DNA of 64,000 nt from Octopus sinensis (GCF_006345805.1 NC_043007.1:2542001-2606000); one strand, 5' to 3'. Shown: positions 46,143 to 49,891, numbered from the stretch's first letter. Notes: generated by a model from the sequence alone, not told the origin. A program made the numbers and translations.

Positions 46143-46186
46143 TTACAGTTGAAAAGGTCTCAAAATGACTGAAACCGGTACTGAAA
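46143..46186 (+). ncRNA. Minimal type-I hammerhead with U3:A8 core variant
   Basis: cag-UUGAAAA-gguc-ucaaaau-gacu-GAAA-ccgg-UA-cug: stems I and II, palindromic ACCGGU stem III, GUA triplet. Confidence 0.65.
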
Positions 46187-46231
46187 TGTTCTTTATAAAA
46201 TTATTTTAGCATTTTCTATTTTGACTTATTT

Positions 46232-46273
<42 letters not shown>

Positions 46274-46733
46274 GCATACTCACACACGCATATATATATG
46301 CTTAAATTCTAAAGTCAATACGAACGATTCTACTGTATCATCTTTAACAATTCTCACTGAATCTGTTGAGAAGAAATCGTTATGTAAGTACATCTGTCTT
46401 TGAAGTTATCGTACAGAATATTACAGCGCAGCGGCAATTTCTTTACATTATTTACTGTTGTTGGCCTTTTGCTTTCTGTTTGTAAATCAATCGTCTGCTT
46501 CTCACTACATTTACACTTCCTACCATGCTTATATTAACTTACAGTCAATAACATCAGATACGATTTATGAACAGAGGTCGGCTCAGATGGACTACGACGT
46601 TTCCTTGCAAGTTGAAAACATAAGTCAAACACACACACAAACACACACGTACCCAACACACACATATGCACATTTCTATATATGTATATATATATACAAG
46701 TGTATACTTAGGTATAGATTTATGTATATAAAG

Positions 46734-46832
<99 letters not shown>

Positions 46833-46834
46833 TA

Positions 46835-47246
46835 GGCGCAGGAGTGGTTGTGTGGTATGTAGCTTGCTAACCAACCACATGGTTCCGGGTTCAGTCCCAC
46901 TACGTGGCATCTTGGGCAAGTGTCTTCTGCTATAGCCCCGGGCCGACCAATGCCTTGTGAGTGGATTTGGTAGACGGAAACTAAAAGAAGCCTGTCGTAT
47001 ATATGTATATGTATGTATGTATGTGTGTGTATATGTTTGTGTGTCTGTGTTTGTCCCCCTAGCATTGCTTGACAACCAATGCTGGTGTGTTTACGTCCCC
47101 GTCACTTAGCGGTTCGGCAAAAGAGACTGATAGAATAAGTACTGGGCTTACAAAGAATAAGTCCCGGGCTCGATTTGCTCGACTAAAGGAGGTGCTCCAG
47201 CATGGCCGCAGTCAAATGACTGAAACAAGTAAAAGAGTAAAAGAGT
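46835..47246 (+). mobile_element. tRNA-derived CORE-like SINE family A, best-preserved full copy
   Basis: A box tggttgtgtgg, B box ggttcagtccc, CORE-like cttgggcaagtg, internal microsatellite, tail cagcatggccgcagtcaaatgactgaaac plus gtaaaaga repeats. Confidence 0.92.
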
Positions 47247-48834
47247 ATATGTTCATATATACGTATTTATATGTGTGAATAATTAATAAGTAAAAGGAAG
47301 CAGTCAGAATGTTGGATTATACTTTATTAGCGCTTTCGTCCGTTCATAGTGACACCTATATATGTTTATACATGTAAGTATATACATGCTTATATATTCA
47401 AATATCCATATCTATATTACTCTCAAACATACAACACACACGCACATGTAATATTATAGTGAAAATTACTACGAAATATTTCCGGTGATGTGGATAATTC
47501 AAGATCTGGTAATTTGAATATGCTAATGCTATATACCTGGGTGAAATACTGAAATCTCTAAGACTATAATTGTAATAAATATTCGATTCTTTTTCTTTTT
47601 TGTATTAAATCTTCTGTGCATATGATTTTTTCTGGAGACATGTGTTTTTTATAGTTTAAACATATACCTTCTTCATATTTTGTTAGTGAATCTTCAAACA
47701 CATCTTTTCCAGTGGAAATACAAAAACCTTTTTTTTTTTATTAAATAAATAGTTTCATTTTATTAGACATGTGTAACTCCCCAAATGGAAATTGAAATGG
47801 AATGACACGTTGTTTTTCATGATGTGCATGCCTTTTTATAAATATGGTTGTTGTTATTGGTATCTTAGGTAAGTAGGTCAAACTATTCCACTATACAATT
47901 TGGTGCCTATTGTATTGAACTGGATACAACGTGAAGCAAAAGTAGACTTGGTGAGTGTTAAAATAGGTCAGTGACAGGTAAGGAATTAATTTCTATTTCT
48001 CATTGAGTCCGGCCGCGCAACAGTTTCTGCCAACGATTCGCTTCTGTAATTCTTATTCATTTCTGGCTCTATTTTCTGAAGAGTTCTATTGGCAGGGGTC
48101 ATAGGAGTTTTCTCTTGGGGCACCGAATGTTATAGTTTTCATTCTGCGCGTTATACGTGTACGTATAATCGATGAAATTATAGACAAACATTATTGAAAG
48201 ACTTTTAATTAAATCGAAATAAGAATCTGTTAATCATAACACTCTCGTTGATTAAATCTCGCCTTACACATTGATTGCTTTTTCGTAGTTCGAAATCAAT
48301 ACTGCGTGGAAGGAGCTGAGGCGTTATTTTAAGGTCTTTTCCTCACCCACAAGAGTGAATGGCACCATCAAATATGATGTAGTTTGTAACGCGTACATAT
48401 TGTTTATCGATCCGCTATTTTATCTAATTTTATATTCTAGATTTTCTCTGGTCCTTTAAGAAATAGCATCCAACTTTCACTCAAATCATTCTACAAAACC
48501 GGAAACCAAAGGATAATGTATCCCAAGATGCACTATGAGAACAGATGAAATGCATTTAGCTTGACTGCTTTAGTTTGGCTATTTTATTTTGTTCAAAGTA
48601 TCTTTATAATTTTTTCCTTTGTTCAAATTACAAAAGAATTCTTTTTTCTAATAGTAATGGTGTTTATGTCACTAAACCTTAGTGGTGATTTGTTGGTTTG
48701 CTTTTCTGCATTTAAAAAAAACAAGCAAAACAAACAAACAGATATACAAGTTGCTGATAAAATTAAATAATAACGATATATTTACACATTTCCCTAAAAT
48801 TTGGGTTCCCTCTGCATCACATTTACACGCTTTA

Positions 48835-49658
48835 TATTGTGTTGAGCTAAAAATTTTGCAATATTTTGTTATCTGCTTTACAAAAATGCAGCCGAACATT
48901 CAATGAAGAATCCGACGTGTTGCACCATCTGAAGCCATCCTTCTGCCAGTTCTTTGATCTCATATTTATACTATTTCTTGTATTTGGAGGTAGAAAATTC
49001 CTTCATTGAAGCATCTCCATCCTCTGGGTTGATGAGCGCTTGGCGCGTGTCACGAACTGGAACAAACAATAATGTGTAGGACATATTTTCCCGCACTCCA
49101 AACTTGCATAAACATTGGTTCAGCAAAGGACGTATTCCCGAACCATTCATCAAACATGGACATCTCGAATTCAAGTTGAGGATCTGAGTCTGGTGGATAG
49201 TTCAAACAGCTGGAGAGGATGTATTGTAGTTTGCGGTAAAATTACCAATCATTCGTTAACAGAAATCGAACTCTTCTGCGGCAAGACACCACAAGACCTA
49301 ATAAAGCTCGAACGACTCAGAATAAACGCTAGAAAACTGATGAAAATGAACTGATTCTACATTTAGCTTATAGTGCACATCTAGATCTCACGGATTATTA
49401 CTTATTCCAATCAATGCCTCACTTCCTGTGCTCACGACTCTTTATCAAGCAACAGGAGGTGAAAGCTCCAGTGAAGAAGTTCTTCGCCTAGAAGGACAAG
49501 AACTGGTATCAAGAATCAAAGAAGTGGCGGAAAGGTGACCTTAGACAGTGCTACACGATGATCTCTAGAATGCTACGTTGCTTTTCTCCTAATAGTTTTT
49601 TTGCGAATAAAACAGCTATGTTTCAAAAATAGTGAAAGCCCTTTGACTCAACACAATA
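48835..49658. mobile_element. Rearranged mariner bounded by two inverted 3' ends
   Basis: TIRs tattgtgttgag / ctcaacacaata; minus IKELAEGWLQMVQH at 48900-48960 mirrors plus IKEVAER*P*TVLHD at 49515-49565; plus strand VNRNRTLLRQD..DYYLFQSM. Confidence 0.8.
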
Positions 49659-49666
49659 TTATTAAT

Positions 49667-49891
49667 CAATTGCAGCGTGGAAGGTGTTTATAAGCCATTT
49701 AAAAACACACAAAAACCGTTAGATTCCGTGCTGCACGGAATTTTGTCAATGAACGGAATTTTGTCAGTCAACAGGGCGGCGGTCTCAAAGCGACGAAAAT
49801 ATTTTGGCAAACCAAATTTAAATGTTGAAGTGAATCTAACGGTTTTTGTGTGTTTTTAAATGGCTTATAAACACCTTCCACGCTGAAATTG
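49667..49891. repeat. 60-bp near-perfect inverted repeat enclosing a hammerhead-like motif
   Basis: 49667-49726 versus 49832-49891; one mismatch near the outer end. Confidence 0.95.
49760..49811 (+). ncRNA. Hammerhead-like motif with G3:C8 core variant (decayed)
   Basis: uuguca-GUCAACA-gggcggc..gcgac-GAAA-auau-UU-uggcaa; the adjacent partial duplicate reads uguca-AUGAAC, so together they imply GUGAACA. Confidence 0.5.

Follow-up and report, generated by a model that had tools for sequence, protein, structure and literature searches.

Positions 3 and 8 of the hammerhead ribozyme pair with each other in the catalytically active fold. Lunse, Weinberg and Breaker are said to have found in 2017 that the small hammerheads of Penelope-like elements (PLEs), with their reduced stem III, cleave as dimers. 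In the covered parts of the literature cited here, U3-A8 is described in PLE hammerheads, with about 1,300 hits in S. mansoni (PMC4209133), and natural U3/A8 compensatory core variants are given by Perreault et al. (2011; PMC3088659). The engineered C3G/G8C swap rescues activity in vitro relative to the single mutants, the rescue being partial (PMC9901934), and it also rescues the PAc PLE hammerhead, whose cutting is helped by the element's protein (PMC11167929). The 2'-OH of residue 8 serves catalysis in the active fold (PMC8495972), and a C3-G17 mispair can act as a trap (PMC3884650). The role of PLE hammerheads is debated, since the minimal ones cut weakly in vitro (PMC4209133), cleavage is dispensable for insertion in one reconstituted system with uncut RNA as the main template (PMC11167929), and the hammerheads have been suggested to be mere passengers, Naiad PLEs spreading without canonical ones (PMC8557442).

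The window analysed here is a stretch of 64,000 nt from a genome of 2.72 Gb in which (TA)n and short repeats abound. Five motifs in it are small type-I hammerhead frames inside short repeats, running from stem I through seven core letters, often one extra letter, stem II and GAAA to a palindromic or short stem III, UH and the closing strand of stem I. Cores reported by a sequence-only reading of the window are present as it described them: CTGAAGA at 22780-86 and CTGATGA at 51498-92 on the minus strand (both C3-G8), TTGAAAA (U3-A8) at 46149-55, and GTCAACA at 49767-73 with the ATGAAC of an adjacent partial duplicate at 49749. A second TTGAAAA core, which had been placed at ~23664-23670 on the minus strand, is also present, 2 nt away at 23668-23662. 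The repeat families of the cores at 49767, 46149 and 23668 are called G, U1 and U2 below, and a further family, O, is introduced with its relatives. The features are as follows.

49670..49951, plus strand: copy of the pLTR (terminal repeat) of a G family PLE, with a 5'-inverted arm, a short internal duplication and then a direct unit of ~190 nt
49740..49754, plus strand: partial duplicate of the stem I strand and the start of the core, with ATGAAC at 49749 and a private A3
49759..49811, plus strand: G3-C8 hammerhead fold, core at 49767-73, G12 at 49795, palindromic stem III AATATT
46025..46237, plus strand: U1 family, 5'-truncated 3' end of a young PLE, then (TA)n
46141..46189, plus strand: intact U3-A8 hammerhead, core at 46149-55, stem II 46156-59/46167-70, GAAA at 46171-74, palindrome ACCGGT
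23546..23679, minus strand: decayed copy of the U2 family pLTR, U3-A8 core at 23668-23662, with G12A, A14C and a broken stem II pair
22722..22830, plus strand: palindromic insert with a C3-G8 hammerhead, core at 22780-86, U.U at the base of stem II, 4-bp stem III
51434..51544, minus strand: palindromic insert of a C3-G8 family, core 51498-92 at the inversion junction, 5' strand of stem I lost
43547..43658, plus strand: 3' fragment of an O-like pLTR without a hammerhead, 73% over 116 nt

Only the copies at 46149 and 22780 are intact matches to their family motif. The 49767 copy carries G5->C and a disturbed stem II, and is predicted to be inactive through this private change; the 23668 copy has lost G12, A14 and one stem II pair. 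The 51498 core is a junction chimera: it arose at the point where an inverted arm abuts the core of its family, lacks the family's 5' strand of stem I and so has no intact stem I. Predicted cut sites lie after U17 at 49804 for the 49767 motif, after A17 at 46180 for the 46149 motif and after the A at 22818 for the 22780 motif. The direct unit of 49670..49951 ends at the fixed 3' end of the G family, and duplications like 49740..49754 are also found in loci L005 and L015. U1 copies are 98-99% identical to one another. The families of 22780 and 51498 are known here from their insertion style and hammerhead alone. In loci L131-L138 the latter often has C4 (CCGATGA), a GNRA loop and a stem II of 3 bp whose closing pair is A-U, A.G or A.A, and a second, more diverged inverted relative of it lies at 51730-51815 in the window, with cores CCGATGA and CCAATGA.

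The genome was searched with flank-only patterns in which the seven core letters were N, and consensus counts were made by hand on the first 100 matches listed in genome order for each family, some of these rows being two arms of one insertion or segmental duplicates. For the G family (1,102 genome matches to the core-blind pattern), the 100 matches listed include 95 with G3, 92 with C8, 87 with both and none with C3/G8. The consensus GUGAACA, which had been deduced from the damaged 49767 copy and its duplicate, is borne out by an exact GTGAACA in 76 of these 100. All 100 matches listed for U1 (131 in the genome) carry U3/A8, 97 of them with the exact core, and among the 100 listed for U2 (1,050 in the genome) U3 occurs in 94, A8 in 99, both in 93, C3.A8 in 5 and C3/G8 in none. 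Reversed-pattern control searches of the genome gave 0 matches. G3/C8 and U3/A8 are the consensus states of their families, which is the outcome that the sequence-only reading had asked to be checked. Within the U2 family, C3.A8 is commoner than other single changes and may mark a minor subfamily or a hotspot. Two G subfamilies differ in loop II with the core unchanged (12 of 12 Gb copies have GTGAACA); GCTAACA 'cores' (5/69) were discarded as inversion-junction artefacts.

The G unit is also present in public-run contigs under four organism labels. In the contigs of four runs (B, C, D and the presumed-RNA run of A) no core variant reaches 3%, and subfamily variants within the G ribozyme are frequent only at the stem I wobble site and in loop II. 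Since most non-CpG sites are equally quiet, the quiet core shows the majority state only, not selection or transcription.

With regard to the other marks of a hammerhead, the majority of each of the G, U1 and U2 families keeps U4, G5, A6, A9, G12, A13, A14, A15.1-U16.1 and a non-G residue 17, and O has the conserved letters as well, read through A15.1; the window copies at 49767 and 23668 and one sister family of U1 depart from them. Stems I and II flanking the core form the minimum-free-energy (MFE) fold of intact G, U2 and U1-sister copies, and the 3:8 pair is Watson-Crick in 87, 100, 93 and 90 per 100 matches listed for G, U1, U2 and O, respectively. Palindromic stems III are present (AATATT, AATT and ACCGGT); on cofolding, the U1 palindrome pairs between copies, whereas the G and U2 palindromes do not. 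As had been claimed, such motifs are invisible to CUGANGA searches, because this descriptor cannot match U3/A8 or G3/C8 cores. Rfam gave no hammerhead on any of five G family loci or at 22780, and scored 46149 as HH9 with 16.7 bits (E 0.076), below the gathering score of 52, so that by Rfam gathering score the G loci, 22780 and 46149 would not be counted as hammerheads, nor would the G loci and 46149 by a literal CUGANGA. A strict hammerhead scan of the window returned 46149 and one chance match. An Rfam scan of the whole window had no hammerhead among the 150 matches listed of 293, all of them microsatellite or hairpin matches below gathering, and the repeat listing of the window is dominated by simple repeats.

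Three of the five families lie within the pLTR of PLEs, where RT and/or GIY-YIG frames precede the G, U1 and U2 motifs by 0.6-1.1 kb. In U1, a 721-aa RT frame (Pfam RVT_1, E 3e-9) lies 615 nt before the core; its Cys-rich linker and GIY-YIG-like C-terminal end were read by motif, without a Pfam match. In G, a 427-aa frame with a YVDD motif and a Pfam GIY-YIG domain (E 3e-5) lies 1,043-1,059 nt before the core in two loci, L260 and L261, upstream of the same ~190-nt unit as in 49670..49951. In U2, an endonuclease 49% identical to that of G is found 818 nt before the core in one locus, and endonuclease matches in the genome coincided with none of the listed U2 sites, so no further U2 locus was obtained. 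The order RT, GIY-YIG and hammerhead pLTR is seen in G and in U1 (L229 and sister loci), and its endonuclease part in the single U2 locus. A Cys-rich linker before the endonuclease, together with placement on a reference RT tree, would mark the Neptune/Nematis clade; the linker reads C-x3-C-x2-C in U1 and is similar to this in G. The G and U1 proteins are only distantly alike, at 23-25% in two short stretches. The 3' end of G copies is fixed, and the copies are located at (TA)n and often have 5'-inverted arms. The frames, fixed 3' end, (TA)n sites and inverted arms, which are the marks given in the covered part of PMC8557442, identify the repeats as PLEs with a C-terminal endonuclease. Most of the copies examined are solo or inverted pLTR pieces, unlike the tandem hammerhead monomers of non-LTR retrozymes.

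An initial assignment of the G protein to Naiad was dropped, as its endonuclease is C-terminal. A tie of U2 to a U1-like ORF in L202 was rejected, as the U2 part begins after a (TA)n tract, and an L055-type hammerhead in L237 lies 1.9 kb from the endonuclease of that locus and is not its pLTR. A PDB search with the U1 protein gave 0 matches. The 5' ends of the G loci L002-L030 and L139-L168 form a cluster some 15-25 nt upstream of the core, which would fit a template RNA starting there, and G copies also occur inside a segmentally duplicated block (L139, L143, L144, L163 and L165-L168).

The strongest evidence is that the 49767 (G) and 23668 (U2) families are, on their sequence, homologous, which the sequence-only reading had missed. 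Their pLTR tails 3' of the ribozyme agree in 66% of aligned pairs, a score reached by 0 of 1000 shuffles. The O family, found by following a PLE fragment in the randomly drawn locus L237, has 239 matches; of the 100 listed, 90 are C3/G8 and none U3/A8 or G3/C8. Across G-U2, G-O and U2-O, the tails agree in 65-74% of aligned pairs, with 0/1000 shuffles reaching the score in each case. G and U1 tails show no significant alignment (264/1000 shuffles reach the score), and U1 and U2 appear unrelated, as had been stated (986/1000). The homologous cores are CTGAAGA in O, TTGAAAA in U2 and GTGAACA in G, and the homology of the three repeats places all three pair types within one PLE group.

The G and U2 cores differ only at positions 3 and 8. 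Stem II shows a C-G to U-A swap with pairing kept, and stem I two compensatory pair swaps, read by eye; in O, a G-C to A-U swap in stem II also keeps pairing, and N7 is variable. When 42 G and U2 sequences (33 distinct) were aligned with MAFFT, pairing was kept in 97% of the 198 cells of 3:8 and stem II, a figure that counts one event per pair many times, compared with 14-57% in slid registers; only 3:8 and stem II were counted because MAFFT misaligned stem I between the two families. Rough neutral odds, from local identities that are biased upward, come to about 0.01 that the two swaps are both complementary and to 0.02-0.05 that none of the nine remaining core letters changes. As a consensus reflects the state of one founder, each family counts once and the selection argument needs the comparison between families; the G/U2/O trio is unrooted, and the G-C state is a single event.

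A descriptor blind at positions 3 and 8 was run over 900 kb of fetched loci plus the window. It gave 20 clusters, merged into 12 families and one stray T.G singleton, which is non-Watson-Crick. The majority 3:8 pair is Watson-Crick in all 12 merged families (7 C-G, 4 U-A and 1 G-C), including all seven that the sequence-only reading had not chosen, five of which are single copies and among which L180/L130/L055 and L147/L133 are related. By chance, 27% of pairs would be complementary, and shuffled controls gave 0.4 hits per replicate. L180 (C3-G8) and L130 (U3-A8) form a second close C-G/U-A sister pair. L055, L130 and L180 are related hammerhead repeats with a CAAUA-like loop II, L055 being U3-A8. 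The scan is incomplete, as it missed O and a family with A13->C.

This last family is a sister of U1. In U1 sister PLEs of about 92% protein identity, U3/A8 is kept together with G10.1-C11.1 (the motif is present in 4 of the 6 close-relative loci fetched), so the G.U of the window U1 subfamily is a tolerated wobble. In sisters of about 70% protein identity, the core is TTGATAA, stems I and II differ in sequence and are pairable, and the palindrome ACCGGT is kept. These have GCAA for GAAA in 5/5 PLE loci (L255-L259) and in the incidental L102, and A13->C is here a family-level change at a normally invariant position. The sister PLE has many long open frames, up to 784-789 codons, which suggests recent activity of that family.

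Taken together, the motifs are minimal type-I hammerhead folds whose 3:8 pair is set by family and which probably act as slow self-cutting RNAs in their parent elements. Two motifs of a tandem-pLTR transcript would pair through the palindromic stem III, and the dimer would take on the active fold, with a 3:8 pair that positions the 2'-OH of residue 8. A slow cut after residue 17, probably aided by the element's protein, would then trim or process the RNA. Any isosteric 3:8 pair would be tolerated, so lineages could switch between pairs. Selection would act on the mobile masters only, and inserted copies would be truncated products in neutral decay. In U1, A17 could mispair with U3, by likeness to the C3-G17 trap (PMC3884650). 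The earlier claim that these are selected non-canonical ribozymes and not decay finds support in the family consensus and in the covariation among homologues, but does not extend to the window copies, two of which are predicted to be dead; on sequence comparison, it is for the master elements that selection can be argued.

How far cutting itself matters was approached through the ends of inserted copies, in 18 arms of 17 short loci, which were taken from the first 20 among 3,594 genome matches to a 3' anchor of the G family. Among G arms anchored 3' of the cut, 15/18 keep the whole core and 0/18 begin at the cut site, which indicates that inserted G cDNAs come from uncut RNA, as in the system of PMC11167929. 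It is conceivable, if on balance rather unlikely, that the hammerhead-like fold including 3:8 is selected as a structure, for dimerisation, PLE protein binding or RT initiation, with cutting marginal or incidental. The lack of arms beginning at the cut site would fit such a role, as would insertion in vitro from mainly uncut RNA and without need of cleavage (PMC11167929), the spread of Naiad PLEs without canonical hammerheads (PMC8557442) and A13->C in a successful U1 sister family. Against this, pairing of 3 with 8 is part of the catalytically active fold (PMC9901934), and G, U2, O and U1 all retain G5, A6, A9, G12, A14, A15.1-U16.1 and a residue 17 other than G. A founder effect, in which degenerate masters with a 3:8 pair complementary by chance or as a relic hitch-hiked with retrotransposition, seems improbable to us. 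In its favour, independent events are few, the 46149 family stems from a single young burst, each of the changes C3->U and G8->A is a transition, and copy counts can show only neutral decay inside families. But a change between U-A and G-C takes two transversions at exactly the paired sites with nine other core letters fixed, further stem pairs are swapped, 12/12 families are paired, and U3-A8 persists in the U1 sister of ~70% protein identity, with stems I and II of different sequence.

An origin of the non-canonical cores by private mutation within CUGANGA families, which the sequence-only reading had named as the result that would overturn it, is refuted with near certainty: although the window G and U2 copies do carry private damage, C3/G8 occurs in 0 of the 300 matches listed for G, U1 and U2. 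Points counted against slow self-cutting, the preferred reading, are the few events, the link of U2 to an ORF from one locus, the single-copy and partly related families of the descriptor scan with its stray singleton, the arms that keep the whole core, the failure of the G and U2 palindromes to pair between copies on cofolding, the A13->C sister, the A17 of U1 and the 5/100 C3.A8 rows of U2, together with the partial rescue by G-C (PMC9901934) and the weak cutting in vitro (PMC4209133). A stronger form of it is put forward tentatively, with somewhat more doubt than belief: that one PLE lineage may have moved its 3:8 pair through C-G, U-A and G-C with the hammerhead kept working, that G3-C8 may be an unreported natural active ribozyme in thousands of copies, and that its survival would show propagation to depend on a cleavage-competent fold.

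The families share with the PLE minimal hammerheads of PMC4209133 a pLTR downstream of RT-GIY-YIG, a short stem I, a palindromic stem III, an extra nucleotide between A9 and G10.1, G10.1-C11.1, and mostly solo or inverted copies. In contrast, G3-C8 is absent from the parts of that text and the rows of its supplementary alignment that were covered, and three states in homologous families of one genome are unreported there. The variants of Perreault et al. show the same compensatory change at 3:8 and a U.U at 10.1-11.1, as at 22780, but in the covered part of PMC3088659 U3/A8 is named and G3/C8 absent. The engineered C3G/G8C molecules (PMC9901934, PMC11167929) have the same G-C pair as laboratory mutants, whereas in the G family it is the consensus state, and that family has 1,102 core matches with exact flanks and 3,594 matches to a 3' anchor. 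Natural covariation at 3:8, as claimed in the sequence-only reading, is seen among homologous families and was overstated as new, U3-A8 being published (PMC3088659, PMC4209133). As natural U3-A8 is already in print, only G3-C8 and the three-state series may be new.

For natural G3-C8 our literature search found engineered mutants only; Lunse et al. 2017 and Hammann et al. 2012 may hold it. The dimer hammerheads of the former, which are reported to have the reduced stem III and the dimer cleavage proposed here, may already include 3:8 variants. As far as searched, a natural high-copy G3-C8 family and a three-state series in one PLE group are new. Since the 3:8 pair is part of the active fold, finding it in three paired states among homologous families gives comparative evidence that this fold is under selection, and the series is a natural set on which swaps could readily be tried. 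A descriptor with a fixed CUGANGA or UUGANAA would pass over entire high-copy families, so animal ribozyme censuses and 'no hammerhead' claims may undercount.

The window also holds other repeats. An abundant SINE-like repeat at 46835-47245 and 57575-57625 (plus strand) has a 3' tail with a stem-loop followed by GAAA..TA, which resembles the 3' half of the U1 hammerhead without the core strand. An open frame of about 199 codons lies at 50844-51440 (minus strand) and may resemble the C-terminal part of a CR1/L2-type LINE protein. A short PLE RT-like fragment, 56% identical over 36 aa to the U1 protein, is found at 56872-56979 (plus strand).
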